Assembly (NCBI GenBank): GCA_032718475.1
Contig: JAUCBJ010008708.1
Coordinates: 62,001 to 126,000, forward strand
From: Nemertoderma westbladi
Lineage: Eukaryota > Animalia > Xenacoelomorpha
Direction of reading: 5' to 3'
Length of the DNA stretch: 64,000 nucleotides
In this document: piece by piece, positions 3,847 to 48,500 of the stretch
Position numbering within the stretch: position 1 is the stretch's first letter
How the letters are laid out: each line of letters starts with the position of its first letter
Made by a program: the position numbers and the translations under genes
The notes under the pieces: generated by a model
The model's input: the letters and a program-made list of their open reading frames with translations, nothing else
What the model was told of the DNA's origin: nothing
Database searches by the model: none

Positions 3847-4019
3847 TTTAGCGTCAGGCTAAATTGTGAAGTTATAATAATAAGATTTGTTAAGAGTTGC
3901 ACAAGTCAGTAAGTCTGTACTGAAGAGGTACCGGTACATAGCCTACAACCCGAATCCTCGAGTGTTGCTAGGCAACCGTGTCAACAACCCAACTCCATAT
4001 CTCACCCCTGTACGCCACA
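3847..4019 (-). repeat. 3' LTR of CsRn1-like Gypsy
   Basis: Identical to 8034-8206 by eye; preceded on the minus strand by the PPT at 4021-4030. Confidence 0.95.
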
Positions 4020-4059
4020 ATGCTCCCCCCAGTGTAAGGAAATGAAACGAGAAGGTAAC

Positions 4060-7000
4060 CTATAAGTATCTGGGGGGATTTATGATGCGACCAGATCTTG
4101 TGGTTATTAGTGGCGCAGGCGGTGTAACTGGCGGAGATGAATGAGTTTGTACTGTAGGAGTGGGTTGAGTTTCGGGAGGAGGTTTGTCTGGTTGGACGCC
4201 GCAACCGTAGGCCACCTTGAGACGGTCGACGGACACGGTCTCTCGGCGGCCGGTGACGTCGAGAACGAAGTATTTCTCTGATTTTTGTAGGACTCTGTAA
4301 GGGCCAGAGTACGGGCGCTGTAGTGGTCTGCGGTGGGCGTCGCGCCGGACGTAAACGTATCCGGTCGAGCCGAGGTTGTCCGGAACGGAAGTCGTACGAC
4401 GGCCGTGGAACTCCGGAATCGGCGGAGCAACGGCGCGCATAGAGTCCTGGAGTTGGAGGAGGAAGTCCGAGGATGGAGGCTCCGATCGCGGTACTGGAGC
4501 GACGAACTCGCCGGGGATGTGGAGGCTGGTCCCGTAGACGAGGTCGGCGGGGGAGCAGCCGGAGTCCTCGCGCCACGCGGTCCGGATGTTGAGGAGGACC
4601 ATGGGGAGTTCGTCCATCCAGTTGGGGCCGACGAGACGCGCCATGAGGGAGGCCTTCAGCTGCCGATGGAGGCGTTCAACCATCCCGTTGGCCTGTGGAT
4701 GGTAGGCCGTTGTGTTGGATGCCGATATACCGAGGAGGCGGTGGAGATCGGCCCAAAGGTGGGAGGTGAACTGGGCGCCTCTGTCGGAAGTAACGTGACT
4801 GGGGATACCGAAACGGGATATCCAATGTCGGAGGAGGGCTCGAGCGCATGTCTCGGTGGTTGAGTCCGCCATTGGAATAACTTCGGGCCAACGGCTAAAC
4901 CTGTCGATTACGGTAAACATATATGTCATACCTTCGGACACGGGTAGAGGGCCGACGATGTCGACATGTAGGCTGTCGAATCGGTGGTCGGGAGGCTGTC
5001 GTCGAGTGAGTGGGGCGTGGACGTGTCGGTGAATCTTAGAGGCCTGACACGCGTGGCACTCCTGGCACCATCGTTTGACGTCACGTTTCAGTCCGTGCCA
5101 GACGAAACGGGACAAGATGGCGCGTTGGGTTGGGCGGTTCCCGGAATGGCCGAGTCCGTGGATTGCGTCGAAGACGCGTCGAGTCCACTCCTTGGGGATT
5201 ATGGGTCGGGTTCGGCCCGTGGAGACGTCGCACAGTATGGTGAAGTCACCGAATGGGACGTCTTCGATGACGAGGCTGGTAATGGCGGTTCGGTAGGTGT
5301 TGACTTCAGCAGATGTTTGCTGTGCCGTGGCGAGTTGCCGGAAGTCGATGGTCGGTGAGAGGATGGCGGCTACCGGGGCGCGGGACAGGGCATCGGCGAC
5401 GACGTTATCTTTGCCGCTGACGTGCCGAATATCCGTCGTAAACTCGGCAATAAACGACATATGGCGAGTTTGGCGGGGAGAACGTTCCGCGGCGCTGGTC
5501 AACGCAAAGGTCAGCGGTTTATGGTCGGTATAAACCGTAAAGGTTCGACCTTCAACGTAGTGTCGAAAGTGTTTAATGGCGAGGTTTGCCGCTAGTAACT
5601 CGCGATCGAATGCAGAATATTTCGCTTCGGCAGTCGAGAGTTTTCGCGAGAAAAATGCGACAGGGCGCCACACCTCGCCATGTAGCTGTTCGAGTTTAGC
5701 GCCAACAGCCTTATCAGAAGCGTCGACAGTGACACTCGTGGTGGCGGTCGAGTTGGGATGGTGGAGGAGGGTTGCAGCGGCGAGGGAGGACTTGGCAGAC
5801 TCGAACGCCGTCTGGCATTCGGGAGTCCACTGAATCGTCTGACTCTTCGACTTGGTGGCCTCGTACAACGGGCAGAGTTTGTCGGCCAACCTTGGCATGA
5901 AGCGGTGGTAGTAGTTTACCATGCCGAGGAAGCGTTGGAGGCTGAGTTTGGAGTCCGGGGTCGGATAGTCGCGGATCGCGTCGACTCGGTCTTCGAGAGG
6001 AAGGATTCCCGAGGATGTAACTTTGTGACCGAGGAATGTCAGTTCCGGGACACCGAAGACGCACTTGGTGCGGTTCAAAACCATCCCGTTGTCCGAAAGG
6101 AGTCGGAAGACTTGGCGGAGGTGGTCGATGTGTTCGGCGACGGAGCGACTTGCTACCAGGATGTCGTCGAGGTAGACGAACGCGAACGGAATGCCGCGTA
6201 GAATGCCGTCCATTAGCCGTTGGAACGCCTGGGCGGCGTTCTTTAGTCCGAACGGCATTCGGAGGAACTCCCAAAGGCCGAAGGGAGTGATGATCGCCGT
6301 CTTTGGTGTATCTTTGGTCGCCATGGGGATCTGGTGGTATCCCCGTACCAGGTCGATCTTAGAGAAGACCGACATTCCATCCAGGTGACCGTTGAAGTCT
6401 TGGATGTGTGGTAGGGGGTACCGGTCGTCGACGGTGGCGTCGTTGAGACGGCGGTAGTCCCCACAGGGCCGCCAACCGCCACCGGGTTTGGGGGCGATGT
6501 GGAGCGGGGAGGCCCACGGCGAGTTGGAACGCCGGATTATGCCGAGTTCCTCCATCTTGGCGAACTCGGCCTTGGCCACCGCGAGTTTCTCGGCGTCGAG
6601 TCGGCGGGCGCGAGCGTGTAGAGGAGGTCCCTCCGTAACAATGTGGTGCTCTACACCATGTTTATTCAACGCAGTCGGCTCGAACCGAGGGATGAGGAGC
6701 TCCGGGAACTCGTCAATGAGTCGCTCGCAGGGACCTGTAGTAGGGATGCGGATGCCGGCGATAGCGGTCGAATAGCAGGCGATCTTGGTCGGGATCGCTG
6801 TAGGGTTCGACATATCGATGAGGCGTCTCCCTGCAAGGTCGATGGCCAACCGGTTGGAGAAGAAGAAGTCGGCGCCGAGGATTGGGGAAGAGACGTTCGC
6901 CACGTAGAATTCCTGCGTGAAGACCCGCCCGTTGCCGAGGTGGAGGCAGATCGCCCTTTTGCCCCAAGTGGCAATCGGACTGCCGTTGGCGGCGACCAAC

Positions 7001-7113
7001 GGGGCAGTTGGGGTGCGGGACCGTTTGTCGGCAGCGGATGCGGGCGAAACCGAGACTTCGGCTCCGCAGTCGACCAGGTAGGTCTGGCCGGTGCGACGGT
7101 CCCACACAGTCAT
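4060..7113 (-). CDS. pol: Gypsy Pol (protease-RT-RNase H-integrase), probably translated as Gag-Pol by -1 frameshift
   Basis: LVDCGAEVS protease; YLDD RT; DASD/TDHKPL/NVVADALSR RNase H; H..GH…C..C zinc finger, VDIVGP…DRG…VER core and GPY integrase motifs. No stops in 1017 aa. Confidence 0.95.
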   Translation of the reverse strand: MTVWDRRTGQTYLVDCGAEVSVSPASAADKRSRTPTAPLVAANGSPIATWGKRAICLHLGNGRVFTQEFYVANVSSPILGADFFFSNRLAIDLAGRRLIDMSNPTAIPTKIACYSTAIAGIRIPTTGPCERLIDEFPELLIPRFEPTALNKHGVEHHIVTEGPPLHARARRLDAEKLAVAKAEFAKMEELGIIRRSNSPWASPLHIAPKPGGGWRPCGDYRRLNDATVDDRYPLPHIQDFNGHLDGMSVFSKIDLVRGYHQIPMATKDTPKTAIITPFGLWEFLRMPFGLKNAAQAFQRLMDGILRGIPFAFVYLDDILVASRSVAEHIDHLRQVFRLLSDNGMVLNRTKCVFGVPELTFLGHKVTSSGILPLEDRVDAIRDYPTPDSKLSLQRFLGMVNYYHRFMPRLADKLCPLYEATKSKSQTIQWTPECQTAFESAKSSLAAATLLHHPNSTATTSVTVDASDKAVGAKLEQLHGEVWRPVAFFSRKLSTAEAKYSAFDRELLAANLAIKHFRHYVEGRTFTVYTDHKPLTFALTSAAERSPRQTRHMSFIAEFTTDIRHVSGKDNVVADALSRAPVAAILSPTIDFRQLATAQQTSAEVNTYRTAITSLVIEDVPFGDFTILCDVSTGRTRPIIPKEWTRRVFDAIHGLGHSGNRPTQRAILSRFVWHGLKRDVKRWCQECHACQASKIHRHVHAPLTRRQPPDHRFDSLHVDIVGPLPVSEGMTYMFTVIDRFSRWPEVIPMADSTTETCARALLRHWISRFGIPSHVTSDRGAQFTSHLWADLHRLLGISASNTTAYHPQANGMVERLHRQLKASLMARLVGPNWMDELPMVLLNIRTAWREDSGCSPADLVYGTSLHIPGEFVAPVPRSEPPSSDFLLQLQDSMRAVAPPIPEFHGRRTTSVPDNLGSTGYVYVRRDAHRRPLQRPYSGPYRVLQKSEKYFVLDVTGRRETVSVDRLKVAYGCGVQPDKPPPETQPTPTVQTHSSPPVTPPAPLITTRSGRIINPPRYL

Positions 7114-7130
7114 TGTTGTCTTCCCGTTTT

Positions 7131-7173
7131 GGCCGGCCGCGGATATGTTTAGCGACCGGCCCCGGCGTTTCCC
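7131..7173 (-). promoter_or_regulatory. -1 programmed ribosomal frameshift signal
   Basis: In-frame slippery heptamer G GGA AAC (7173-7167), 5-nt spacer, then stem GGCCGGTCGC/GCGGCCGGCC (10 bp, one G-U) with an 11-nt loop. The -1 frame is open into pol. Confidence 0.85.
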
Positions 7174-7940
7174 GAACGAGGAGATGAGGCCGGTGTGGTG
7201 GGAATGAGGTGGCTCAGTCGACAGCCTCTGTAACCGCAGTTCCGCGCGGCATTCCCGAACTTCTTGTGGAAGAAGCAGAGAGTCGTAAAGGAGGACCCGG
7301 GAGGCTGTGTAGGCCCGGAGGCGGAGACGGCGTTCCGTTGTACCCCGGCGATACCGACTCCGACGGGTTCTCCTCGGGTCGCCTCCATAATCCGGTCGGC
7401 GTCCGTAGCGAGTTCGTCGAGGTCGGTGGAGCTCGAACCGGCCAGAACGCGCCGGACATCCGTCGGCAGCTGGGCGAGGAACAACGACCGGAAGAGTGTC
7501 TCTGGGTCCGCGTTGAGGGATCTCATGTGGCGGAGGAGACCGGTAGGTCGGCGGTCACCGAGTCCAGAAAGGGACAAAAGTTCGTTGTCTCTCTGAGCCT
7601 GGGTTTTACCAAAAGCGGCGATGAGGGCGCGCTTCAGTATTCTATACTTATTGTCTCCCGCCGGCGGATCGAGAAGTATTGGTCCAACTTCTTTGGCTGT
7701 AGTGTTATCCAACGCAGCAACCACGTGGTGAAACTTGGTTGAGTCTACAGTTATGTTGCGCGTGGCGAACTGAGCCTCGACTTGGGAGAACCAGATCTCC
7801 GGGTTCTCGGTCCAGAACGTGGGGAGTTTGACTCCGACGGCGTTTACTGAGGTTCCGGTTGTGTCGGAGCCGGAAGCAGCAGGAAGGAGGCCTTGGAGGG
7901 CCGTGGCGAGGGCCGCAATATCCTCAGCAGCGAGAGGCAT
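7149..7940 (-). CDS. gag: Gypsy Gag (263 aa)
   Basis: VKLPTFW..NPEIWFSQVEAQF N-terminal motif and C-terminal CFFH-x9-C-x4-C (CHCC), characteristic of CsRn1-like Gag. Confidence 0.92.
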   Translation of the reverse strand: MPLAAEDIAALATALQGLLPAASGSDTTGTSVNAVGVKLPTFWTENPEIWFSQVEAQFATRNITVDSTKFHHVVAALDNTTAKEVGPILLDPPAGDNKYRILKRALIAAFGKTQAQRDNELLSLSGLGDRRPTGLLRHMRSLNADPETLFRSLFLAQLPTDVRRVLAGSSSTDLDELATDADRIMEATRGEPVGVGIAGVQRNAVSASGPTQPPGSSFTTLCFFHKKFGNAARNCGYRGCRLSHLIPTTPASSPRSGNAGAGR

Positions 7941-8020
7941 ACCGGTAGTTAATATTGTAATAGGCTAATAGCTGAACATGGGGATTATTCCGCAACTGTT
8001 TGGATTAGCGAGTTCACCAT

Positions 8021-8032
8021 GCCGGGTCACCA
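8021..8032 (-). promoter_or_regulatory. Primer-binding site, tRNA-Trp-like
   Basis: TGGTGACCCGGC, 1 nt downstream of the 5' LTR; resembles the complement of the tRNA-Trp 3' end used by the CsRn1 clade. Confidence 0.75.
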
Positions 8033-8033
8033 G

Positions 8034-8206
8034 TTTAGCGTCAGGCTAAATTGTGAAGTTATAATAATAAGATTTGTTAAGAGTTGCACAAGTCAGTAAG
8101 TCTGTACTGAAGAGGTACCGGTACATAGCCTACAACCCGAATCCTCGAGTGTTGCTAGGCAACCGTGTCAACAACCCAACTCCATATCTCACCCCTGTAC
8201 GCCACA
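8034..8206 (-). repeat. 5' LTR of CsRn1-like Gypsy
   Basis: Identical to 3847-4019; followed by the PBS. Confidence 0.95.
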
Positions 8207-8210
8207 ATAT

Positions 8211-20756: not shown

Positions 20757-23421
20757 AATTTGCAGACTTTAACAAGTCTCTCGTAAAATCCTCCCCACTC
20801 AGGACTCCTGGCGGGAATCCTTTTCCATTCAACAGGGTTTGCTGGGAATCTCATCGATGCCAATTTGCGAAATGTCATGGCATTATCAGAGTGAAATGTT
20901 ATAGGCGTGAGGGGTTAACCACGCAAGTAATCTCCGGATAGCTAGGTGCGTTGTTTTGCATTTCGTATCTGGGACTAGTTCAAGGTGAACGGCTCGTATG
21001 CATGCACATACAAATAATGCAACCCAAACTTTGGTTCCATCCTTGAGGAACAAATGACCAAAGAAGTCAATCCCCGTATGTTTAAAGGGAGTTACAGGTG
21101 TTACACGGAATGGCTGGAGAGTGGACTCAGATGTCCGGTAGGGTATTGATCGATATCGTTGGCATTGAGGACAGTTAAAGATAAGTTTGCGCACAAGTGA
21201 TCTCCCCTTAGGGATCCAATAACTTTGACGAATAGATGCAAGAGTAGCATCATATCCCTGATGTCCAAGTATAACATGAACTTCCATGACGATTAGGTAA
21301 GTCAGGTGACTCTTAGGAGGTAGTAGTGGTAGCGGATCACAGTTACGTATACGGGGTACAAAGACTAATAAGCCATCAATGAGCTTGGGATGAAAGCGCC
21401 AAAGATTGGATGACTTGGATAAATGACTAACAGGACTCAACAACAATCGAATTTCTTTCCCAAAGAATCGATGTTGCTCTACACAAATCAAATAGCTACG
21501 AGCAGCACAAAGTTCTGAGCCACGCAACATTTCCGAGTATTTATTGGTTGGGTGACGAGTATTATGAATAAACCGTTGGACATAAGCTACAGTTCGTATT
21601 AGGGTATTAAGACATGAAAAACGGTATATATCAATAGGGTTATCAATAATAGGGTATGGTGAGTCGATAACGAGTAACTGGGGTGGAGGCAAAGGAACAC
21701 ATGGCCAATGTGACTCAGGCTCAGAAAGAAATGCCGGACCATGTTTGTATAACATGGAGTGTTGTAGTGTAGAAAGATAACAACCCCTAGAGGGAAGATC
21801 AGCAGGGTTTAGTGCTGAAGGTATATAACGCCATTGATCACTAATATGATCAGGACGTGTGAGGTTGCAAATCTCCGCTATGCGGTTGGAAACAAAAATA
21901 TTCCGCTTTGAGACACCTTTGCGAATCCACCACAACACTGCCATTGAATCTGTCCAGATAATTAAGCGACGTGGTTGAAATATCTCAATACAGATATGGT
22001 GGCCTAGTCGACTACCTATAAGGGCAGCAAGTAGTTCGAGTTGGGGAATAGAACGTTGGGGTTTTAAAGGGGCCACCCTAGCCTTTCCGAATAATAAACA
22101 TGGCGATTTTGTTGGATGTACAACATAAGCTAAGCATGCATACGCAGCTTCAGATGCATCACAAAAAATGTGAAGATCACATTGCTCATTAAGGTAAACA
22201 CATCGACGAAAAGTGATAATAGGTGTTAGGGCATCCTGAATCCAAGAATGCCATTGCTGCTGAAGAGATTGAGGCAGTTCATCATCCCAATGACCCTTCA
22301 CAGCCCAAGACTTCTGCAATAATATGCGTGGTATAATCGTCCATGCACAATAAAGGCCCAAAGGATCAAATACCTTGGCAAATGAACGTAAGAGGTGACG
22401 ACGGGTATAAAAAGGTGGCTCAGTTATAACACTGGTATCAATGTACAATCTATCTAATGATGAATTCCATGGAACCCCTAACAGCTTAGTGGGAGACTCA
22501 GTAGGCTTGAGTTCCATTGCAGCAAGTGCAAGAAGATGAATAGCATACTCTAAAAAATATGCTGCTTCCTCTGGGGAATCTTTGCTACTGAGGAGGTCAT
22601 CACAGAAAAAAGCTTCAATAAGCTGTGAGACAATAGTAGGATCTGCATATTTAGAGATATGATATAAAACTACAGAATGTAGGTGGTATGGACTAGAAGA
22701 TACACCAAATGGTGCTCGAACAAATTGCCAGGTGGATCCATTAATAATAAGCTTGACCCACTGACGGTCATTCGGATGTAGTTCAATTTGGTGAAAAGCC
22801 GCTTTAATGTCAGCAATGACGATGTATGGTTTGAGTCGAGATCTCATTAGAATATCAACCATCGGGGCTAACAGGTTAGGTCCAATATCAAGGCAATTAT
22901 TAAGACTGACACCATTCGTATCAGGAGCTGAGCCATTAAATACGATCCGAAGCTTAGGTCTTGGTTTCCAAACACAATGGTAAGGCAAGAAGTTTCCAAC
23001 ATTATTGGCAGTGGTGGCAGGTTCAATAATCCCTTCACTAACTAACTTGGTAAGTTTGTCGGAATATGCAATTAAATCGGAAGATTTCAAAGCCTTTTGC
23101 ATACCATATTGCTGGCGTGAAACCACAGAATAATTAGGAGAAGGACGGCGTGGTCCTTTGAATGGTAGACGAACCTGGTACTGGTTAGGGTTTTCGGTTG
23201 ATTTAACAGGTGGTGGATATGCGCATTCATCATTGTCCAGGAAACTCTGAGATGATATACCAATGGCTTCAAGGGACCACATTTGAGTGACATCATCAGG
23301 TTCCGTAATCAACAGACTTGGAGTTGATTCTATTGATATGTTATGGTTTGGTTCTCCGGACATTGGACCACAAAGAACATAACCAAAGAACGTATCGACT
23401 GGGCGTGGAAGACCAACATTA
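20757..23421 (-). pseudogene. pol: BEL-A pol: RT, RNase H, integrase (frameshift near 20915)
   Basis: LRIVFNGSA, ADIKAAFHQI, FGVSSSP, FFCDD, FDPLG, HIFCDAS, LELLAA, NPADLPSRG, H…GH…C..C, GIDFFG, SDNA, WGGFYERLV. Confidence 0.9.
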
Positions 23422-23426
23422 AGTAT

Positions 23427-24673
23427 TGTAAAAGCTTCTGTGGGATATAACTGGCCCCTTTTGCTTCGCAATCCAGTTTCCCCCCAGGCGCTGGAATACT
23501 CTAAAAAGGTTCTCTAACTGTATATATATTCCCCTCGCCCGCAAGGTACCGTTACAGGTGTTTTAACGGACATAAAAGTCATTCTGCTATATACGTGTTT
23601 TGGCGGACATGGTAAGGCAAAAAACCTGCAATGCACCAACTACCTTTCACAGCTTAGCCGTGATGATTCATATTACGACATCTAACAGCTGGTTGCTGAC
23701 ATGGAAACAGCCATTGGACGCATGGTTCTTTGTTTGGCTTGAGCCAATCAGAGCGATTTTTCCTGTCGACGTGTAGCTTTTCGGCCGATCATAAGGAGAG
23801 TGTTCAGTCTTACTGTTTTTACTTGATACTTTGTTGTTATTGCTGTCTAAGCCAGAAACACCGGCTTTTTGGGAAGAACTCTAGTAAACTGCTTGAATTA
23901 TCGAAAGTATAAACTGTTACCTCAATAACTCACTAATTAACATGCTCACTTAATTTAATTGCATTAATCATATTGTTTGTACTGTTATTTTACCGTCAGT
24001 TATTAATTGTACCTATTTGTTGATGGAAATATTGCTCTTTGGATAATACGGATAAATCACCCAAATTCCCAATTTTCTTGATACACTACAGGTTAGAGAG
24101 ACCGGCTATATATAACAATTGCGATTTATATCAATGTGGTGTGTATTGAATCTAATGTTATTTAGTAGACACTACCTGAGTCAATTGCTGTTCTCTTCAT
24201 GTGTGATCAAATATACTGACGGTCGGCAGAATAGTGTGCATGATTGTGAGTGTGATGTGACTGGTAACAAAGCATTTCCTAAAGAATGCGACTTATACTT
24301 TAATCATAAGCCTTATCGTTGCGTTTAGTATAAGTCCTAGCTCTGTTTAAATAGATAGAGCGCCACGTCCTAAAGGAACTGTTAATATTTCCCGAAAGTT
24401 AATAATATCTGTCAGAAATTAATTATTAGTGATCTATCGAATAATACAATAGGCTTACACTGCAACCTTACACTGCAATAATAAAATCTAAGCATCCGAA
24501 TTCAGCCTCCCGGGTGTAGATCCATCGGGTGAATGATCGCGCATGGGCTGGCTTCGGCTAATGTTTTGTTTATTAGCATAAAATATTGTCGTATGCTAAA
24601 GGTGTGTTAATTAACTAAAAGACATATAAATTTTGGCAGGTTAAACTGCTAAAGGTCTTCAAAAGCGCGAACA
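23427..24673 (+). repeat. 5' LTR of BEL-B
   Basis: Direct repeat of 34219-35465; AATAAA at 24480-24485. Confidence 0.95.
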
Positions 24674-25108
24674 GTAACAGTTAATAATCTTATTGCAGTA
24701 GGCAATAAGGTTGCAAGTGTAGGCATTAAATACAGTTTAATACTGTTCTGACGAACAGTAACAGTTTATAATCTTATTGCAGTAGGCAATAAGGTTGCAA
24801 ACTACCGTAGTGACTGGTAAAACTGAACCGGTACTTTGTAGGTCAGTAGGCCTAACTGTCATCACCGGTACCGGTACTGCTGTACAAGTACATTTAGTAT
24901 TATTCGATTTGATTATTGTATACTGGTAGGTCTTAGTACTTAATCAGGGACTGCAGCCCTGAATTTTTATTGAGATTTTACCTATTTCTGTCGGTTTTAT
25001 TTCCTAGTAGGCTAATATTGAGCAGAAGGCGTGTGACCCTGCTCAGATTGTTCAGATAATTGTAGGCTGAGCTGCTGTCTGACTGTTGTTGAGTTTGGAG
25101 AGATTACG

Positions 25109-25625
25109 GCGTGTGTAGAGTTTGTCTGATAAAGTGCCGTTAGTAAGTTGGGGCAGTCATAACTGTAAGGTCAATCCCCTCTTAAAGAGTAAGTCGTACT
25201 ACCGTGTTAGCACGCATACTAACTAACAGTTTCAGAGTCTGCATATACTGTAGTTTATTTAGGCTTGATCGTAGTCTGCCAGTGTTTTAGCCTGTGTTTG
25301 TTTGTGTGGTCTGTTCAGGTACTGTAATAGTTATTACTCAAATATTTGTAGGCTGGATTGTTGTCTAGCTATTTTTAGGTCTGAAGGGATTGCTGCGTGT
25401 GTAGAGTTGGTCTGATCAAGTGCCGTTAGTAAGTTGGGGCAGTCATAACTGTAAGGTCAATCCCCTCTTAAAGAGTAAGTCGTACTACCGTGTTAGCACG
25501 CATACTAACTAACAGTTTCAGAATCTGCACATACAGTAGTTTGTTTAGGCTTGATAGTAGTCTGCCAGCGTTTGGTTTGTATTTGTTTGAGTATTCTGTA
25601 CGGGTAGCGTAATATTTATTATTCA
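25109..25625 (+). repeat. Tandem duplication (period about 286 bp) in the BEL-B leader
   Basis: Blocks starting GCGTGTGTAGAGTT at 25109 and 25395 share an identical core of about 100 bp. Confidence 0.85.
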
Positions 25626-26941: not shown

Positions 26942-29900
26942 ATGGCTGACACAAGGCAAACTCTGTCAGATAGTCTTTTAGAAACAACAGCCTGTTTCTC
27001 AGATCAAAGTGTAGAGAATCCCAGACCGAGGTCTGAGACCCCTCCTACTGTAAGAAGGGCAACCCCTGCAGTAGTTGTGTCAGAACCTAGGTTGGTAGAA
27101 GCGATTTCGCAATTTGCGAAGTTAGTGAAGCGCCGTAGGTCTGCCATAGGCACTCGGGCCCAAGTTAAGCGGGATCAGGAAGCAGCTGTCAAACAGCAGC
27201 GACATCCTAGCCAAGAACCTAGTTCCCAGCAGCCCGATAGCTCCAGTAGTTCGGAGACGGTTGAGCGGACGCCCGAACGCGGAGCGAAGATGGCGGATAC
27301 GGTTTATGATGAGCGGCCAACCTTTGAAGAATCAACCGACGCCACTTCTTCTCAAGTGGAAAGCGAAGTGGAAAGCGAAGTGGAAAGCGAATTAACAGCA
27401 GCAGAGAAGCCACGAACTAGAGATGCCATTGACATCTATCTGTCAGACTATCAGCGATTCGTAGGAGACGAAGAGTTGAGGAGACGACTGTCTGGGCTTC
27501 GCCCTAATAGTGAAGGAACCAAGCTTGTGTTAGACGCAATCGATGCGGAAATGTTAGCTGCAAACCAAGCTGAATGTGATGAAAAACTCCGCCTCACTAG
27601 AGTCCGAGAAGAACAAATAAAGAAAAGAAGGATAGAGGAACAAAAGGCGGCGGCTATGGCGGCGGCTATGGCAGAAGCAGAAGTAGAAAGAAAGGCAGCG
27701 GCGGCAGAAGTAGAAGCAAAAGGAAGGGCAGCGGCGGCAGAAGCAAAGGTGGCAAAGGCAGTGGCAGAAGCAGAAAGGAGAGCATCTGAGCAGACTACCC
27801 AACTGGAGTTGGAGAATCTGCAAGAGACACAAGACAGTATAAATAAACAGTTTACTGCTAATCAAATGCAGATGATGAGAAAATCTACTCCCAAGCGCCA
27901 GGGGTACACATCCTCGGAGGAAGGCGATACTACCGATCCTGAAGGCGGAGGAAATAGATCTCATCTAAGTAGGCGTAGAAAAACATATTACCGTCGCAAA
28001 TTGCCTGATTTGCCCCCAGCTGTTAAAAGACAGCTAACTAGCACAGATTTAGGTAGTGCAGAACCCATAGAACAATTTATCCAGGTCAAAAGACTCCCTA
28101 CTATAGTCGATGAACCTGAAATAATTAGGCCTGTAGTTCCCAAAGTCACTTCTGTGCTAGAGACCCCTACACTTCCAGAGCTTAACTCTAAATTCCCTTT
28201 ACATAGCACTACACTGCCTGTACCCGGTGGAACAGTCCATGCAAATACCCCTGTCCAGATAGCAGAGAGAGAAATCAATAATTTGTCTCCCGTCGTCCCG
28301 CGTCAGCCCGCTACTATGTTGGCGACTCCCGCTTCGGCGGTTGAGTGGGTGGAAGAGGGACGGCGGGGGATGAATCTCCTGCTAGGACAGATGCAGGAGA
28401 CTGTCCACCAACTTAAGGGAACAGTGAGGGAAGGTAGAGCAGAGTTGCAAGAAGTGCAGCAAAGTATCGCGCTAGAACGCGACAAATTAGTCAATATACA
28501 AAAAGGCATACCAATGCCCCCTGTAACATTGTGTCAACCCGTTAGGTCTGAAGTATTACATGCGCAAGGTGTGGAGCCTACACGCATCTATACTGCTAGT
28601 GAAGTTGAAACTCCTATAGCAAACCCTATTAAGGGTGATTATAGACCTGTTATTAATGATATTCCCTATAGACCTGATAATGATCCGAGAAATTTGTATA
28701 CCGATAATTCGATATTAAATAACACGATGGCCCAAGAAAGCTTCACGCGTCAGATGGCTAGAACAGAAGCCCGCCAAGCGGTCAAAGTGGGAGAGATCGT
28801 CAAATTCAATGGAGATGAGATGAAATGGTTACCTTTCAACGAATATTACAAAGATAGCATACAGAACTCTGTACTATCTAACGGAGATAAACTTAGATTC
28901 CTCATCAAGTGCTTGGAAGGACCTCCCAAGTTAATGGCGTTAAAGTTTATTGGACATCCAGATGGATTAAGACAAGTTTGGGATACATTAAACATCAGGT
29001 ATGGTAACAAGGATAACATAGCTAAGTATTTGTATGCAAAATTAGTAGCCCCCCGACACTTCCTTAGTAGCGGGATTATAGAGTTTTCCGATGAAATTCA
29101 AGAGATTTGTAGACAACTGGACTGGTTAGGTAAGTCGCATGAATATCAGAGTTCCATGGTTATTGGAGCCGTAGTCTCTACTTTACCAAAGGGTGGAGTA
29201 TGTACACGTTGGGACAAGAAAGTGTTGTACATGAATGAACAACAACGACGAAGTCCTACCATGGCTGATCTCATGTCTTTCTTAGATGGTGAGGTAAAAC
29301 TACAACTCATCAAGCAGGCCAGAGAGAAAACATCGGAAAATAAGGTAAGTGAGAAACCCGTTTCTAGGAGAAGGATAATACCAGTGTGTTATACTGACGA
29401 CGGCGAAAGCCAAGCTTCTCAAGAAGAGGACAGCGGGAAAGACACAGCAAAATCTTACTATGACAACAAGACCTATAAAGACGTAAGTAAATACAAGTCT
29501 CGAACCAGTGACAGGAGAGAACAGGTAACAACAACTCCTCCTACGTCTCCTAAGAGAATTCACGGAAGAAAGCCCGAAGAAAGAACGAGAGTGCAGAACG
29601 TTAACCAAGTTAAGGTGAGTAACATCAAACCAAAATGTGCGCTGTGCGACGGGCCCCACCGTTTGAGTGCGTGTGCTGAATTTCTAAAGAAATCCCCTGT
29701 AGACAGACGTACAGTCCTGTGGAATAAGCGGCTATGCTATAATTGCCTCAGATCAGGACACCAACGGCGAACCTGTTACTCCGACGTAAAGTGTGCAAAG
29801 TGTGGCGCGAAACATCACATCTTGTTACACAGTGAGTTCGAACGAGACAACCCGAGTCAGGTAAGTGAGCCCGAACTACATGTCCAATTCAGTGATGTGA

Positions 29901-31063
29901 ACGACACTGACCAAGGTTCTGAGTGGGAAGGATTCTATACAGACGAATTCTCCGATGCCAACGAATCCTGTTATCTAATAAATACCACAGTGTATCGAGC
30001 ACTTACGGATGAAAAGGACACTGACGAGTTTACTCCAACTCCTTTTGACAAACAACCATCTTGGAAAGTTCCAACTTCCAACATAGGAATAAGAGAATTT
30101 CCTGTAGTGCAAGTTCGAGTTCATGGTCCCAACAAGAGTTACATAGTGAATGCCCTACTTGACTCCGGCAGCACAGGAACATTCATCGATCAAGAACTAG
30201 CCGAAGATATCTTTGCTGGACAACCCAAGTTCCGGACTAAATTGAATATGTCAGGAATTGTGCAGGTTTGGAAATCTACCCTAACGGCAGATTACTATGT
30301 AGGTGTGTTGTCCACCCCCCAGGATAAGTTAGGAACACAAGGTATAAGGTCAGTAAAAATGGTGGCTATAAAGAACTTTGCTACTACTCAAGCAGAACCT
30401 TATAACTGGGACGAGGACGAGTGCATCCAACATCTTGAGATACCTCGATTCCAAACCGATTATCCTGGAGTGCAAATACTCATCGGCCAAAACGCGCATG
30501 AGGCGCTCGAGCCATTAGAGAAACGGCCTGCTCAACCACAGTCACTACAAACCTATGCGGTAAGAACTAGAGTAGGTTGGTACTTCACTGGCCCTTCCCG
30601 TAGAACTCTCAAAGAGAGATTACCTCAACAACAGGTATACCAAGTAAAGGGGGAAGTGGAGAGCAGTGATGTGGACGATCCAACTGAGGGAACACCATAC
30701 TCCTCAGATAATGACGATATTAACTCCAATGTAGATCAATGGAGACATTGCCTTGGGACGATTAATCCAGCCAACATCGCTTCCAGAGGAGCAACTCCTC
30801 AAGAACTGATAGATACTCCAGGCTGGTTAGGTGGATCCGACTCCTTAAGTAAAGAAGAAGAAGAATTGCCTCCTCATCTTACCACGGCAGAGAGTAGACA
30901 GGCCAAGGGAGCGGAGAAACTAACACAACAACTCAATCGCCCAGCTGGTCGTTTATGTTTACTGGAAAGAGACCGAAAACTGTCCGGAAACTATGGAAGG
31001 CAAGATACTCTTCCTACGACCACTTCCCTAATCCGACAAATATCTAGGGACTCTATAACGTAA
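26942..31063 (+). CDS. gag: BEL-B Gag-protease ORF with RT, RNase H and integrase deleted
   Basis: KFNGD…W..F…K..FL..CL.G.P capsid region; three Cys/His knuckles; LLDSGSTGTFI protease; then only the remnants QWRHCLGTINPANIASRG and RPAGRLCLLE. Confidence 0.9.
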   Translation: MADTRQTLSDSLLETTACFSDQSVENPRPRSETPPTVRRATPAVVVSEPRLVEAISQFAKLVKRRRSAIGTRAQVKRDQEAAVKQQRHPSQEPSSQQPDSSSSSETVERTPERGAKMADTVYDERPTFEESTDATSSQVESEVESEVESELTAAEKPRTRDAIDIYLSDYQRFVGDEELRRRLSGLRPNSEGTKLVLDAIDAEMLAANQAECDEKLRLTRVREEQIKKRRIEEQKAAAMAAAMAEAEVERKAAAAEVEAKGRAAAAEAKVAKAVAEAERRASEQTTQLELENLQETQDSINKQFTANQMQMMRKSTPKRQGYTSSEEGDTTDPEGGGNRSHLSRRRKTYYRRKLPDLPPAVKRQLTSTDLGSAEPIEQFIQVKRLPTIVDEPEIIRPVVPKVTSVLETPTLPELNSKFPLHSTTLPVPGGTVHANTPVQIAEREINNLSPVVPRQPATMLATPASAVEWVEEGRRGMNLLLGQMQETVHQLKGTVREGRAELQEVQQSIALERDKLVNIQKGIPMPPVTLCQPVRSEVLHAQGVEPTRIYTASEVETPIANPIKGDYRPVINDIPYRPDNDPRNLYTDNSILNNTMAQESFTRQMARTEARQAVKVGEIVKFNGDEMKWLPFNEYYKDSIQNSVLSNGDKLRFLIKCLEGPPKLMALKFIGHPDGLRQVWDTLNIRYGNKDNIAKYLYAKLVAPRHFLSSGIIEFSDEIQEICRQLDWLGKSHEYQSSMVIGAVVSTLPKGGVCTRWDKKVLYMNEQQRRSPTMADLMSFLDGEVKLQLIKQAREKTSENKVSEKPVSRRRIIPVCYTDDGESQASQEEDSGKDTAKSYYDNKTYKDVSKYKSRTSDRREQVTTTPPTSPKRIHGRKPEERTRVQNVNQVKVSNIKPKCALCDGPHRLSACAEFLKKSPVDRRTVLWNKRLCYNCLRSGHQRRTCYSDVKCAKCGAKHHILLHSEFERDNPSQVSEPELHVQFSDVNDTDQGSEWEGFYTDEFSDANESCYLINTTVYRALTDEKDTDEFTPTPFDKQPSWKVPTSNIGIREFPVVQVRVHGPNKSYIVNALLDSGSTGTFIDQELAEDIFAGQPKFRTKLNMSGIVQVWKSTLTADYYVGVLSTPQDKLGTQGIRSVKMVAIKNFATTQAEPYNWDEDECIQHLEIPRFQTDYPGVQILIGQNAHEALEPLEKRPAQPQSLQTYAVRTRVGWYFTGPSRRTLKERLPQQQVYQVKGEVESSDVDDPTEGTPYSSDNDDINSNVDQWRHCLGTINPANIASRGATPQELIDTPGWLGGSDSLSKEEEELPPHLTTAESRQAKGAEKLTQQLNRPAGRLCLLERDRKLSGNYGRQDTLPTTTSLIRQISRDSIT

Positions 31064-32690: not shown

Positions 32691-34140
32691 ATGACGGAAT
32701 TGATAGAAGATGACCTTGGTATCAGGGAGCGATATACTCTACCTTTACAAGCGTTTGTGGATAGCTTGATACGCGGTGAAGCCGATCCGACTATTATGGA
32801 GGACGATGGTCGTTATATCGAACCGCCGATGTCCCAGGAACAACTTACGCGTGAATTGGACTATAGAAAATTCACCGCTCGCTATACGAATCGTAATGGT
32901 ACGTATATGGACTTCTTAACTACCGGCCATCCTACCGATTTACATGATACGGACGATGTATACACCGAAAGGGAAATGGTTCTATTTAAATATCATACCC
33001 AGCGGAGTCGTAACGATAAACCGAGAATAGATCACGAAAATTATATTCGTAACAGACTGGGAAGACGGACCCATATGTTTAGAATCTGAAGAGATTCAGC
33101 CCCCACGTCTCGGAGTAGCGATAGCGACTACATATGGGAATGGTATCAAGGTCCACAGTGTCTCACTGCGTACGATTATCGCCATGCCAACTATGTTTCT
33201 CGGCAACGTTATCGATTATGCGCATCGAGAGACCATGTTACGCCCATGGACACAAACGTCCGCTGTTCCTATTTCCACGAACAACCGACGATGGAAATTT
33301 ATTGCGCGTATTACAGACTCAATAACTCGCACATTTTTGCGGTTTGCCCTCAATTGATGACTCAATGTCACCATTGTCAACTAAAGGGACGCGCCAGTTT
33401 CGATTGCCCTTTTTAGTCACGATTTGGAAAGCGTAGATGAAATGATCACACTACGTTACATCAGAGCTTGGGAAGCGAACGCTGATTTACATTGTGATTC
33501 ACGCCATCGCTATTATCCTGGACGCGCTTACGAAGGAGTTTATGCGTTCCATCCTTATTTGTTTGCCTCGGTCGAGCAGAAATCGCGCCTATCGAGTTAT
33601 GAACTATTGAAGCGCGTTGGAGAATGTATTTCAACCAAATATGTACGCAAATTTCTCAGGAGCATTAATCCGAGTGACATCAATTCGTACAACTTAATAA
33701 ACTTTATCCGTCAAGATCCGGCCTATGGAGACTTATTTGTCAACTCACACCCTGAGTTACAGGAAGTATATCGACGGCCTTACGAGTACAGAGCCCGCGA
33801 ACGCGAGTTGGAAAGAACCATTAAACCAAGGAAGTTTCTAACTGCCTATGGTCCACCCACGGCCCTCGTTCAGACCACTCGTAAAGGACCCGTAAGAGCG
33901 GCTGTCTTGAAACGAGCTCTCAAAGCCGTTAGACCCCTCTCCCCGGACGTTGATGTCAATCAACCCGGTACTTCGACCGGCGGATATACCGATCGCAATC
34001 CCATACCTTCTGATGCAATCATATTGCACCCTTCACCCAGGAGTTATAGCCCTCCTCGTAAAGTGGCTCGCCCCAAAGAGAAAAGGACTCTTGCTAGCTT
34101 TAAAAAACTGCGTAAACGCCGTCCGCGCAAGAAAGACTAA
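32691..34140 (+). pseudogene. BEL-B accessory ORF (about 482 aa reconstructed), zinc-knuckle-like with basic C-terminus
   Basis: The frame continues past the TGA at 33087 into YRLCASRDH…CAYYRLNNSHIFAVCPQLMTQCHHCQLKGRASFDCP. One extra T near 33411-33414 joins it to ORF 33424-34140, which ends KKLRKRRPRKKD. Confidence 0.7.
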
Positions 34141-34218
34141 CTGTTTAGAGTATTTACGTATATTAGAAACTGTGATTTTTGTATATTTATAGACTCAAAT
34201 CCCATTTTCTGGGAGCGG

Positions 34219-35465
34219 TGTAAAAGCTTCTGTGGGATATAACTGGCCCCTTTTGCTTCGCAATCCAGTTTCCCCCCAGGCGCTGGAATACTCTAAAAAG
34301 GTTCTCTAACTGTATATATATTCCCCTCGCCCGCAAGGTACCGTTACAGGTGTTTTAACGGACATAAAAGTCATTCTGCTATATACGTGTTTTGGCGGAC
34401 ATGTTAAGGCAAAAAACCTGCAATGCACCAACTACCTTTCACAGCTTAGCCGTGATGATTCATATTACGACATCTAACAGCTGGTTGCTGACATGGAAAC
34501 AGCCATTGGACGCATGGTTCTTTGTTTGGCTTGAGCCAATCAGAGCGATTTTTCCTGTCGACGTGTAGCTTTTCGGCCGATCATAAGGAGAGTGTTCAGT
34601 CTTACTGTTTTTACTTGATACTTTGTTGTTATTGCTGTCTAAGCCAGAAACACCGGCTTTTTGGGAAGAACTCTAGTAAACTGCTTGAATTATCGAAAGT
34701 ATAAACTGTTACCTCAATAACTCACTAATTAACATGCTCACTTAATTTAATTGCATTAATCATATTGTTTGTACTGTTATTTTACCGTCAGTTATTAATT
34801 GTACCTATTTGTTGATGGAAATATTGCTCTTTGGATAATACGGATAAATCACCCAAATTCCCAATTTTCTTGATACACTACAGGTTAGAGAGACCGGCTA
34901 TATATAACAATTGCGATTTATATCAATGTGGTGTGTATTGAATCTAATGTTATTTAGTAGACACTACCTGAGTCAATTGCTGTTCTCTTCATGTGTGATC
35001 AAATATACTGACGGTCGGCAGAATAGTGTGCATGATTGTGAGTGTGATGTGACTGGTAACAAAGCATTTCCTAAAGAATGCGACTTATACTTTAATCATA
35101 AGCCTTATCGTTGCGTTTAGTATAAGTCCTAGCTCTGTTTAAATAGATAGAGCGCCACGTCCTAAAGGAACTGTTAATATTTCCCGAAAGTTAATAATAT
35201 CTGTCAGAAATTAATTATTAGTGATCTATCGAATAATACAATAGGCTTACACTGCAACCTTACACTGCAATAATAAAATCTAAGCATCCGAATTCAGCCT
35301 CCCGGGTGTAGATCCATCGGGTGAATGATCGCGCATGGGCTGGCTTCGGCTAATGTTTTGTTTATTAGCATAAAATATTGTCGTATGCTAAAGGTGTGTT
35401 AATTAACTAAAAGACATATAAATTTTGGCAGGTTAAACTGCTAAAGGTCTTCAAAAGCGCGAACA
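34219..35465 (+). repeat. 3' LTR of BEL-B
   Basis: Direct repeat of 23427-24673; preceded by the PPT. Confidence 0.95.
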
Positions 35466-37474
35466 AGTATAGTGTTGGCGGTTACAATATGTAATTGGTC
35501 AGCACCAATAATAAGAGATATATTGCGCAGGCTACCATTAAATTCATCAGCCCATGGTTGGATGTGCGTTAAGTTAGTAGGTAAATGGGGCAAATATTCC
35601 TGTCTAATTGGAGGACAAAGAGATGTTGCAGTCCATGCACATAAAACCAAGGGTTGTGGCGAAAACTGACTCCGTAAAGAAATACTAACCTGAGTGGAGT
35701 CTTGAGAACAAATATGTCCTCCAAAGGAACCTGTAGTAAAAATCTGCTGCTGTAAACAAGGTAATGCTAATTCGTCGGCCACATTTTTTGTAATATATGA
35801 CCTTTTAGAACCATCATCCAGATAAATATAAATCCAGATACCTATATCTGAATTTGGCGGTGAGATAAATGCCTTAGCTATTTTAACAAAAACAGCAGAT
35901 GGATTAGGTTCGGTGGCATGAACAGATGGTTGGACATCGTTATAGATAGGTGTTGCTGTAGGTGGTTGCCATGGCAACATGCCATCGGGTTTTGTTAATG
36001 TTCTAGTATAAGTCTTAGAATTCGAGTGAGTACTTGCAGTTCCAGTACTAAGGCTAGGCTGGTGGTTTGATTTATTAGAACTATAACAAAGCAAAGAATG
36101 GTGGCGTTTGCCACAATGGCGGCAGGAGGTGGTTGAGGGACACAATGAATACTGGTGAGGTCCCAAACAATTGGTACACAGGTTTGATGCTTGAATAATG
36201 TTTGAACGAGCTAAAGGTAATTTGCTCATAAAGGATTTACACAATCTCAGACTATGGGGGGTGCCATTGCATGCAGGACAGGGAGAACGAGATGGATTCT
36301 CATTAATAGTAGTATAATTATTTTTGCCTCGATTGCCAACAGGTGAATGTCCTGTATTATCACTTATAGGCAAAGCAGCAACAGCACTAGGTTGGAGTGG
36401 TTGTCGCCTATAATTTGGCTGATGGAAGGTTGGTTTTATATTTGTCCGGGTTATTTCTTTGACTGACTGGGCATTAAAATCCAAAGATTCCCGAGTTTCT
36501 AATTCAGAATTGGCAAAATCTAACAATTTGTCTAGATTAAAACGATCGTCTGCATGTAGATGATTCCAATCCAGTACTACATCTGGAGGTAACTTCTGTA
36601 GCAGTAGAGGTGCTAATAATAAAGATGTAAGGTCATGTGTTGCAGTGGAAGTATCAACACTACAATTTGGGTTTATCTCACTAGATAAACTTTTGATCTG
36701 TCTAAGGGAAGATTGGAAAGAATTTAGAGTTTTTCTAAACATTGGTACATTATCAGTGGCTATATTTGGTTGGTTACACAACTTGGTGGCATAGAGTCCA
36801 ATTAAAAAATTGGGGTTCCCATATCGGCGTTTAAGGGTTTCTATGGCTATTATATAATTTTCGGCTGTTGCTTCCAGCCCTTCTAAAGCATCTCGGGCAT
36901 CTCCCTTTAAAGACTGCCGCAAATAAACAAATTTCCGGGTGGCCGGAATATTGCATTGATGAATTGATGTGGAAAATTGGTCCCAAAATGGGCGCCATTG
37001 CAAAAAATCACCAAAGAACTTTGGTATTTCAACCTTTGGTAAACCCCGGTCATCATCCTCCAATAGTTTGGTATGAGAACTAGAACTGGAAGAATCACTG
37101 GTTGGGGGTTGCTCTAGACGTGCTAGTAAACGGCTAGATTTGAATAAAATCTCATCTATTTCCTGGTCGAGTTTGTTAAAATTTACAATATTTAGGCCCA
37201 ACTCGGACAGTTCATTGTTTATTTTACACAGGTAAATACGGTGGTTTTCTAATACATGAATGGCATAGGCAAAATCATCAATTTCTACTGACTCACCTCG
37301 GCCTCTAAAACGATGTAAATCGCTTATTAATTTGTTGGCTTTAATTCGAGCCTGGTTATAAGAACGTTTTAAAACTTCAGCCTCAGCATTCTGACCTTCT
37401 GTTTCGACACGGTTGTCAGCAGCAGGGTTATTCTCTATATCTACAATATCGAGGGTATCATCTAGATCAGACAT
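35466..37474 (-). pseudogene. gag: BEL-A gag-protease (interrupted by BEL-B)
   Basis: LPKVEIPKFFGDFLQWRPFWDQF…KFVYLRQSLKGDA…RYG; three knuckles CPAC…H…C, CTNC…H…C, CRHCGKRHHSLLC; YLDDGSKRSYI protease. Confidence 0.92.
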
Positions 37475-37608
37475 ACCGGTACCGGTAGGCCCCTAATGGG
37501 CATAGGAGCATAGCAGTATAAGCCTACTGCTGTACTGACTGGTTGTAAGTGCTAGGTGGCGGTTGCGGTTGCAGGTTGGTAGGTAGTAGATTCCGGTCTC
37601 ACCACATA

Positions 37609-38105
37609 TGCTATGGTACCGGTATAATTTCACAGAAGACAATACAGCAGAAGTTTATTTATTTAAAATACATTGTTCCTTCTACTGTTCTAGTCACGTA
37701 CCAGTAGGCAGTACCGATAGATGTCATAATCCGGTTCGAAGATTGTGGTGTCTCTTTTCAACATATACCTAATATAATGAATAGTTGAGAAAACACCATG
37801 TTAAACATTTGGCAGGTAGGCGTCTTTCACAATAACAGTAATAATATAATATTGCAGTACCGGTATTGAATATTGACCACAATACACATAGGTGACATAC
37901 ACATTATCAGGTGTCAAGGATTACAGCAACCGGTATCCGTAGATAGGTCAGTAGGTACAGCAGAGCAGTACATCCACAATAGGCCTAGATAAAACCGACA
38001 TACAGACTTTCACAATATATATAATGAGGCCATGAGTCATAGACAGTTATAATAAAAGTCATTACACTTATAATAAAAGTCATTACAAACACACTGTTAC
38101 CATCA
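37609..38105 (-). repeat. Putative 5' LTR of BEL-A
   Basis: TGATGGTA…TACCATAGCA imperfect inverted termini, AATAAA near the 3' end, followed by TGG. There is no second copy to confirm the boundaries. Confidence 0.6.
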
Positions 38106-45565: not shown

Positions 45566-48500
45566 TGATATGTACTGATATGTACAATATACATGGCTCG
45601 CCCCTTATAGGACTATGTACGTAAGATACCGGTACCACTAGATAGGTGGAGGGTTTTCCCTATTGCTATGCTGTACTGATATTACACTGTACTGCTGTAC
45701 AACACTTTTATATTATACGTGTCTGCCTTATATACTATTGATATTCATATTATTGGGGATATTCCGATAGTGCAGACATACCATGGCGCTGCGAGTAGTT
45801 AAACTCACAACACGCATTTAGCATTTAAAGTGTAGCCAAAAGCAACCGCCTGAACGCCAACCCAAAAATGTCACTACCAACTGAGGATGACACCCTCAAC
45901 CTCGATACTTCATCCGTCGACAAACTCGATAGGAATACGCTAAAAGCTCATCTCACCAACGCTGAGATCACGTTTAGCGATAAAACTTCGACAGTTGCTC
46001 TGAAACAGAAACTGCGGAAATTCCTAGTGGAGGGCGACATAGAAGAAGAGGTGGTAGAATCAGTTGCAGGAGCAGCACACGGAATAGATGTAGCAGCTCT
46101 GCTTCACCAGCAACAGCAGCTGATTAACGACCAACGCGAACAGCAAATACGGATGTTCACTCAACTGCAAGGGTTGCAAATACAACAGGAGGAACAACAC
46201 GCCCGGTTTATGGAAACCCTCAGTGCTGGCGACACTTCTCGCCAACGCGACCGGAACATCGATACTGTCGCTCCACGCATCAACGAACGTGAAACAACTA
46301 AACTCACGGTACGCGCACCAAACCTATTGGAGGACGACGTCGACTTCAAGGAGTTTAAAAGGTGGGAGGCCACTTGGCGAAATTATTCCCGGGTCACGAA
46401 ACTCAATAATAAAATCAGAGAGGATCAACTAGCAACCTTCTTCTCATACTGCAGTCCGGATTTTTTGAACCGATTGCAGTACGCCATTAGTATCCCGCAG
46501 GATACCACATCGTCAATGGAGGAAATCCTTACGATCATACGAAATCACCTGCGAGCCCAACAAAATATAACGGTGGACCGTTATAAACTCGTCCGTAAAC
46601 GTCAGGATGATAAAGAATCCTTTGACGACTTCTATATTAGTTTGTGCGAGATGGCGGATGACGCGATTCTCGAGAGCATGGCAAAGGATGATTGGTTATC
46701 AACTCTCATAATTTGCGGTATAGAAGACGACGAAACTCGGTTGGAGTTGCTCGCAAAGAAACCTACGCTAACACGCGAAGAAATCGTAGATTTTTGCCGC
46801 AATAAAGAACTGGCTATGAAAGACGACCAACGACTAAAGCAAAACGTCGGCGCGGTTTATCCAAAATCCCGCCCCCATAGTCGCGGTCGCCCTCGCCAGA
46901 AAAAATCTGCTGATCCTAAGGAGAAACAACCTCGCCGCAACTCCCAACTTCCTCCCAATGTTTGCTACAAATGTGGCGGTACCTGGCCCCAGAACAGCAG
47001 CAAACCGTGTGCCGCCAAGGGTAAAACATGCTCCAACTGCAATCGTATTGGCCACCTAGCCGACGTGTGTCGTAATCCAAAAGAGAAACAGACGCCGAAA
47101 CGAACTGGAGCAATAATCCTGGCTGCATTCAAGGAGGCGGCCTACACATCGAGGCCCCTTATATCCATAGACTTCCATGATACTCAGGGCGAATACATAG
47201 CGACTAAAGCCTGCATAGCAGATACAGGGGCTCAGGTTACAGTTGCCGGAATACAACTGTTAAAACGGTTCGGTATAACGAGGGATAAACTCCAACCAAC
47301 GGAAGTAAACCACCAGAGTGCAGATGGTTCATCCATACATTGTCTCGGGTCCATAGACTTTATTCTTTGTGCGAAACCATCCTCTGACTCTCATACCGAA
47401 ACCATATACATTTGTGATAAAATGAAGAGAGATGTCTTCCTCTCCCTAGCAGCTTGTAAGGGACTACACATTGTACATGACATGTTCCCCGCCCCCTTCC
47501 CAAATCAATACAGAGTTGGTGCTGTGAAGGAAGTCCTACCGACGACGGATATAAAACTCGCAGAGAAAACGGAAAAAAAACTCATAGAAGAATTTTCCGA
47601 CGTTTTCGCTATCCCTTCAGAGTTGAGGACGATGAACGGCCCACCGATGAAAATCGAACTGAGGGAGAACGCAACCCCGTTTTGCATCTACGCTGCTCGG
47701 AATATTCCGCTCGCCTACAGAGAAAAGGCGCGCCTTGAAATCGAGGATATGCTTACAAAAGGAATAATCGAACGTGTCGGGTATCGAGCTGTTCCTTGGT
47801 GTCATCCGATTGTCGTATGCCCGAAACCCGGCAACCCAGAGGAAATTCGGATGACCGTCGACTTGACGAAACTCAATAACCAAGTGAAACGGACAATTCA
47901 TAACGCGCGTACGCCATCCGATATTATGATGGACCGCACACCAAACGCTCGCTGGTTCACCAAACTCGACGCCAAATCGGGTTATTGGCAGGTGGAGCTG
48001 GCTGAGGAGTCGCGCGACCTTACCACGTTCCTAACGCCTTGAGGGCGCTACCGATACGCCAGGGCCCCTATGGGATTCATTTCCACTGGAGACTCGTATA
48101 ACTACCGTGGCGACCTAGCTCTGGACGGTATACCTAACGTTAAGAAACTCGTGGATGATATACTCATAGAGGATGAATCCCTAGAAGAACACATCGATCG
48201 CGTCCGCACAATATTGGAGCGTTGTCGCACCCACGGAATAACTCTGAACCGCAAAAAGTTTCAGTTCGCCAAACAACGCATCCAATTCGCTGGTTTTATA
48301 CTTTCCAGCACCGGAGTAGAGGCCAATCCGGATAAAATCCGCGCAATCGTTGACTTTCCTACTCCCACGAATATAACAGAGTTGAGAAGCTTCATGGGTC
48401 TCACCAACCAGCTGGGATGTTTCTCCTCAGCCGTGAGCTCAGCCGCAATTCCTCTGCGTGAATTATTGCGCACTAGAAATAGTTTCACCTGGACAACCAT

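Follow-up and report, generated by a model that had tools for sequence, protein, structure and literature searches.

The retrotransposon Tf1 primes reverse transcription with the first 11 bases of its own RNA, which are released by RNase H (PMC7175516). For this self-priming, Tf1 depends on a 'pretzel' of three duplexes: besides that of the primer, two more are formed between sequences adjacent to the PBS and LTR sequences downstream of the primer (bioRxiv 10.1101/2022.12.06.519325). Self-priming has also been predicted for Tj1 (PMC4600332) and, from complementarity between PBS and LTR, for the plant Tcn1 and TAR (Houba/Osr-1, Ty1/copia) lineages (PMC6317226). The BEL element Achilles, by contrast, carries a PBS for tRNA-Tyr (PMC4580426). 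Self-priming in BEL/Pao was not reported in the literature searched, to which subscription journals are largely external; the sections consulted of PMC3286476, PMC5443660 and PMC3601003 contain nothing on the priming of BEL elements, and a search on the priming of Cer7 found no paper.

The element BEL-B, located in the 64-kb stretch of DNA analysed here (the window), shares with Tf1/Tf2, Tj1, Tosmo1-3 and the Tf1/sushi group the lack of a tRNA-type PBS, a PBS complementary to the LTR and two further, in its case predicted, duplexes (PMC7175516, PMC4600332, bioRxiv 10.1101/2022.12.06.519325). The Tf1/sushi elements are Ty3/gypsy chromoviruses, however, whereas BEL-B encodes BEL/Pao proteins, i.e. 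it would work like this group without being a member. It also differs from Tf1 by its 1247-bp LTR, by primer candidates that lie 580-770 nt upstream of the PBS, by a primer that may be spliced and by being non-autonomous. The TAR and Tcn1 lineages belong to other superfamilies, and the accessible text describes no intron-built primer for them (PMC6317226), whereas Achilles resembles BEL-B in its superfamily (DUF1759 gag, Pao-type protease), its TG...CA LTRs and the repeats in its 5' UTR (PMC4580426). To these systems, the window would add a full three-duplex layout around a self-complementary PBS in a BEL element.

BEL-B, all features of which lie on the plus strand, is bounded by two LTRs of 1247 bp each, which were found by self-comparison of the window (23427-24673 and 34219-35465), end in TG...CA and differ at a single position (1/1247, at 23612); the 5-bp target duplication AGTAT flanks the element at 23422-23426 and 35466-35470, and a purine-rich tract ending at 34218 precedes the 3' LTR. 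The main ORF (26942-31063, 1373 aa) contains a DUF1759 gag region, zinc knuckles and an aspartic protease motif, with DUF1759 as the sole Pfam domain in the 1384-aa frame, and the 11 homologues found for it are mostly Pao polyproteins of 22-35% identity. Pfam detected neither an RT nor an RNase H or integrase core in this ORF; motif similarity points to a short RNase H remnant, and we take a further short stretch to be a remnant of the integrase C-terminus. BEL-B is thus a BEL/Pao element by its LTRs, target duplication, gag and protease, it is very young, and it is a non-autonomous derivative because it encodes no RT or integrase core. It is nested in another element, BEL-A, on the minus strand (gag at 35441-37492, part of pol at 20886-23513), and its family is very abundant in organism A, where 35,704 contigs from run X1 match it. 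Rfam gave no match anywhere in BEL-B.

Several further traits of the element were noted. Downstream of the main ORF, two additional ORFs of 132 and 232 aa with short frames between them extend over 32691-34140; there was no Pfam domain in 33385-34140, and the 232-aa ORF had neither a Pfam match nor a usable Atlas match. The polypurine-tract motif occurs three times, at 30908, 32005 and 34212, and the two internal copies may derive from former 3' ends or may serve as plus-strand starts inside the element. The leader carries a family-variable 286-bp tandem duplication (25047-25287 and 25333-25573, approximately 87-89% identical). In the LTR, Inr-like hexamers are found at 23579, 23804 and 23996, together with several TATA-like boxes, and the segment 23692-23809 comprises what we take to be an RFX-like box, a CCAAT box (23744) and an Inr-like hexamer (23804). 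The only mismatch between the LTRs, at 23612, is the G of the best consensus splice donor in the LTR, for which the 3' LTR has a T.

An important question is how such an element could start reverse transcription. BEL-B inserted very recently, with one mismatch in its LTRs and an intact target duplication, and yet no TGG, i.e. the hallmark of a tRNA-type PBS, follows the end of the 5' LTR at 24673, as a preliminary description of this DNA had already pointed out. The same description had listed three nested helices between LTR and leader, which all hold: 24472-24481 with 24690-24699 (10/10), 24461-24470 with 24706-24715 (10/10) and 24453-24460 with 24717-24724 (one G-U), so that 24453-24481 and 24690-24724 can be taken as the two arms of one structure. 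In local alignment, the LTR and the first 60 bases of the leader reach a score of 35, which is attained by none of 1000 LTR shuffles and compares with 28 for the best of 154 interior windows and with 13-14 for the two Gypsy elements of the window. The region 24370-24820 has a folding z of -5.5, and in the predicted fold the helices form with pair probabilities of 0.94-1.0. By raw duplex energy, 7 of 300 shuffles equal the LTR-leader match and at least 5 of the 154 interior windows are stronger. Furthermore, the LTR arm consists of a 13-nt tandem duplication, and an 11-bp hairpin can form within the leader arm by itself (-11.5 kcal/mol); because both arms are internally repetitive, the 28 helix pairs are not 28 independent coincidences. 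An outer 12-bp helix between 24436-24447 and 24897-24908 is predicted with p=0.99, a match that is not significant taken alone (96 of 1000 shuffles).

The duplication of the pairing block, previously placed at about 24753-24800, is real: 24668-24716, comprising the end of the LTR, the PBS and a helix arm, is repeated at 24752-24800 with 48/49 identity. The alternative folds that it was suggested to allow are not predicted: the repeated block would pair within itself, and a switch of the LTR arm to it has a predicted probability of 0.0. A shorter outer match at 24377-24384 was considered as a primer and set aside (8 bp, -8.5 kcal/mol, predicted probability 0). The best place for the three LTR-leader helices is that of the 3'-flanking duplex in a structure of the Tf1 type, and not that of the primer.

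Between the end of the LTR and this helix, 16 bases (24674-24689) remain free at the location of a PBS, and folding predictions put the cost of opening them at just 1.2 kcal/mol. Two places in the LTR are candidates for a self-primer that would pair here. Site A is contiguous (23908-23920) and complementary in 12 of 13 positions to 24674-24686 and in 13 of 13 to the second copy at 24758-24770; 24 of 2000 shuffles do as well for the first copy and 2 of 2000 for the second, and a match of this type occurs four times in the window against 0.20 expected, two of the four being the LTR pair. The contiguous exact match of 9 nt in the first copy, taken alone, is equalled by 26 of 300 shuffles. Site B would be assembled by splicing: 23999-24008 can pair with 24679-24688 (8 Watson-Crick and 2 G-U pairs) and is followed by a predicted GT-AG intron of 83 nt (24009-24091) with a strong YAG acceptor behind a pyrimidine tract and a weak donor, after which 24092-24095, the putative 3' end of the primer, can pair with 24675-24678. 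Across the junction 24008|24092, this gives 14 consecutive pairs with 24675-24688 (12 Watson-Crick, 2 G-U), which are matched by 1 of 500 shuffles when any GT donor is allowed and by 2 of 1000 with a donor score of at least 2. A junction match restricted to strong donors (score at least 3) was not found in BEL-B, because the donor at 24009 is weak. Other donors in the LTR were examined as primer sources, and the strong one at 23612 was rejected (junction match of at most 5 bases) while that at 23520 gives a weak match of 9. The duplex energies are -12.7 kcal/mol for spliced site B, -10.7 for its unspliced form (12 bp) and -11.4 for site A. The LTR is altogether rich in short motifs related to the primer sites, of which A and B are the two rival candidates, and the Inr-like hexamer at 23996-24001 overlaps the first-exon part of site B.

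On the other side of the PBS, the last bases of the LTR (24665-24673) can form a 5'-flanking duplex with 24534-24542 (8/9 Watson-Crick), which is predicted, in this instance from folding with the PBS held open and with no shuffle control, to end precisely at the last LTR base. Central, 5' and 3' duplexes would then abut, with the single bases 24674 and 24689 as hinges, so that BEL-B combines a PBS-LTR complementarity of at least about 11 bases with two flanking duplexes, the 5' one predicted, as in elements of the Tf1 type. In a model RNA that would start at 23998 and have lost the intron, holding primer B and PBS open costs 3.3 kcal/mol and retains 27 of the 28 helix pairs as well as the 5' duplex; the same operation for site A costs 7.5 kcal/mol. 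The folding program assigns a probability of 0 to the central duplex of site A, and because the central duplex crosses the flanking helix, the whole three-duplex structure cannot be scored in one fold.

We therefore favour, at a probability of roughly two in three and on grounds of sequence and predicted structure, a model in which the 5' region of the BEL-B RNA adopts a Tf1-like three-duplex 'pretzel' and reverse transcription is self-primed instead of being started by a tRNA. An LTR-derived segment would pair with 24675-24688 as the central duplex; most likely this segment would consist of 23999-24008 joined to 24092-24095 after loss of the 83-nt LTR intron, or else of 23908-23920. The duplexes 24453-24481:24690-24724 and 24534-24542:24665-24673 would flank the PBS and keep it open from either side. 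An autonomous relative would supply, in trans, the RT whose RNase H cuts just after the paired segment, and the freed RNA 3' end, sitting next to the LTR, would be extended into U5. Between a spliced primer from site B and a contiguous one from site A, the weight is about evenly divided, with a slight lean to B. The suggestion of tRNA-independent priming in the preliminary description is thus supported, though by features not listed there, namely the complement of the PBS in the LTR and the same signature in distant relatives; the helices proposed there would be flanking elements and not the primer.

This signature was also seen in distant BEL elements. Aligning 21 Pao polyproteins led to 19 loci in genome contigs, of which seven had a usable LTR pair; the other 12 were dropped because no LTR pair flanked the ORF or because only contig ends overlapped. 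These loci are likely animal or host DNA inside bacterial bins, and the elements share approximately 21-27% identity with BEL-B over long gag-protease alignments. Four of them (L029, L031, L037, L044) have no TGG and, at the junction that a consensus donor and a YAG acceptor in the LTR would create, show an 11-nt complement of the PBS, which is equalled by 0, 1, 0 and 0 of 300 shuffles, respectively. Together with L034, in which an 11-nt self-complementary PBS is contiguous (0 of 300), five of seven relatives thus have a self-complementary PBS, four of them across predicted splice junctions and one contiguously. In L047, 163 of 300 shuffles do as well at offsets 0-4, and a match of 12 at offset 8 is to be read with an uncertain LTR end and no shuffle control; L045 has a TGG and no self-match and is of the tRNA type. 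Every self-matching PBS matches its own LTR best among the relatives. Where L029 differs from L031 at the exon end, the PBS has changed to match, although these two are not independent because they come from one bin. A 3' helix like that of BEL-B was found in none of the five relatives tested (69-282 of 300 shuffles). By their sequences, the relatives would support self-priming in the BEL/Pao superfamily but not the details of the BEL-B family. As a separate observation, in all of L029, L031, L037, L044 and L047 the LTR contains a putative intron with a consensus donor and a junction that matches the PBS, and an AATAAA occurs downstream of its acceptor at a distance of at most 40 bases. A pattern scan of metagenomes yielded 28 loci, none of which resembles BEL-B by blastn, and scans of viral contigs found no relative.

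Within the BEL-B family, variation was read from contigs of runs X1, X3, X4 and X5, i.e. from short, unlinked contigs, for which depth is a poor measure and among which X5 is RNA by guess only. X1 has 20 sites with variation of at least 4%; of the 19 listed, one falls within the 56 helix bases, a depletion short of significance (P=0.095; 0.23 should the unlisted site lie inside the helix). This one variant, 24476 C>T at 30% of X1, turns a C-G into a U-G pair and keeps the pairing. With respect to the PBS, G>A at 24674 accounts for 22% of X1 depth at a base that is unpaired in model B, no X1 variant of at least 4% affects 24683, which has a pairing partner in B but a mismatch in A, and 24686 A>G still allows a wobble pair; these X1 variants would fit a lean to site B. 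Two rarer ones, 24684 A>T (3.6%) and a deletion of 24683 (1.4%), break both primer models.

The 49-nt block is present in some copies and absent in others, with a joint 24725>24822 in X1, X3 and X4 and joints back to 24667-24671 in X1 and X5. The spliced joint 24008>24092 was not found among the 15 of 33 joints listed, and one X5 contig reads unspliced through the predicted intron. In a diverged subfamily, the alignment begins no earlier than 24066, which is where the acceptor tract starts. In 12 X1 contigs, again unlinked, the LTR is followed by two extra bases, by a stretch complementary to site A in 13/13 positions and by a different sequence thereafter. Run X7 from organism C has zero cover of the BEL-B region. 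The summed depth of X4 is about 10-fold higher over 23424-24066 and 24600-24673 than over the middle of the LTR and the leader, which hints at a related and abundant family whose LTR differs in its middle part. At 24537, a diverged X4 contig apparently has an A, and 24670 A>T is a common variant; if these unlinked changes belonged together, they would represent a compensatory change in the 5' duplex.

An alternative function for the LTR-leader helix is a switch at the 5' LTR against premature polyadenylation at 24480, with priming taking another route. AATAAA, correctly located at 24480-24485 by the preliminary description, is the only one in the LTR; the helix, which no LTR but the 5' one can form, reaches as far as the first two bases of the hexamer, and in HIV-1 a hairpin over AAUAAA represses the 5' site (PMC2645353), which is likewise an RNA structure at this signal in an LTR element. 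The HIV-1 hairpin, however, encloses the hexamer and occurs at the 5' and the 3' end alike (PMC2645353), whereas the long-range helix of BEL-B touches two of six bases (24480-24481). The last four are predicted to be 0.80-0.92 unpaired in the 5' context, compared with 0.34-0.55 for all six in the context of the 3' LTR with host flank, so that the signal is no more covered at the 5' than at the 3' LTR and the earlier proposal of 5'-LTR poly(A) suppression is not supported for this copy. In addition, the partner strand of the helix is transcribed only about 210 nt downstream of the signal, and the hexamer itself is variable: A>C at 24484 makes up 37% of the depth in X1 and 26% in X3, and it is also carried by the one contig that covers the site in each of X4 and X5. 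Retroviruses, among them foamy viruses, also use U1 binding to this end (PMC3694450). Judged by eye, the minority leader of the 12 unlinked contigs would span the A>C hexamer with its pairing, and shielding of the poly(A) signal may be a second role of the 3' duplex in certain sub-lineages. As an account of the locus, however, a poly(A) switch leaves the missing TGG and the complement of the PBS unexplained, and we regard it as improbable.

Priming by a fragment of a host tRNA or by another host RNA seems slightly less probable still. Here, the helices would form a stem between U5 and leader, as in retroviruses, that presents the PBS, and the complements in the LTR would be due to chance. Half-tRNA primers do occur in Ty1/copia lineages (PMC6317226), the low predicted cost of opening the PBS would suit an external primer as well, and the contiguous 9-nt match of the first copy is weak. 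The junction and 12/13 matches, however, are unlikely by shuffling, and a self-complement recurs with different letters in five of seven relatives, plus a sixth when a wider offset is allowed; half-tRNAs are used only by Ty1/copia among the plant elements surveyed (PMC6317226). tRNA genes were present neither in the window nor in the 19 loci. A third possibility, that the repeats are a side effect of template switching during reverse transcription or are used for packaging or dimerisation, and that they play no part in priming, is very unlikely: the region is indeed full of short duplications (the 13-nt tandem, the polymorphic 49-nt block, the leader hairpin) and the tested relatives lack the 3' helix, but an abundant family with a very recent copy requires a working primer site at this position, the single listed helix variant retains pairing and the three duplexes fit end to end.

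If self-priming in a three-duplex structure is correct for BEL-B, the Tf1 mechanism including its flanking stems would have evolved again in another superfamily, possibly with a spliced primer, and this would explain BEL elements that are annotated as lacking a PBS. In the spliced-primer version, only spliced RNA would be copied, and host splicing would thus license retrotransposition. The still wider proposition, that a primer spliced from the LTR, a pretzel that arose independently of Tf1 and licensing by splicing govern BEL/Pao retrotransposition across many marine lineages, is at present doubtful.

The window contains further LTR elements. BEL-A, which is split by BEL-B and whose 3' end is truncated, has the probable end of its 5' LTR at 37730-37750 (minus strand), with no leading TGG downstream; there, the sequence after the LTR end is presumably the inner part of a tRNA-Tyr-type BEL PBS, and no self-complement of more than 6 bases was found in this element. 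In BEL-C, a purine tract of the same type as in BEL-B was seen, and its probable 3' LTR (approximately 53701-53007, with the segment 53449-53203, minus strand) has what we take to be four CCAAT boxes and a TATA box. Finally, the two Gypsy elements, at 3847-8208 and 45566-50150, have near-identical short LTRs with a TGG at or near the LTR end.
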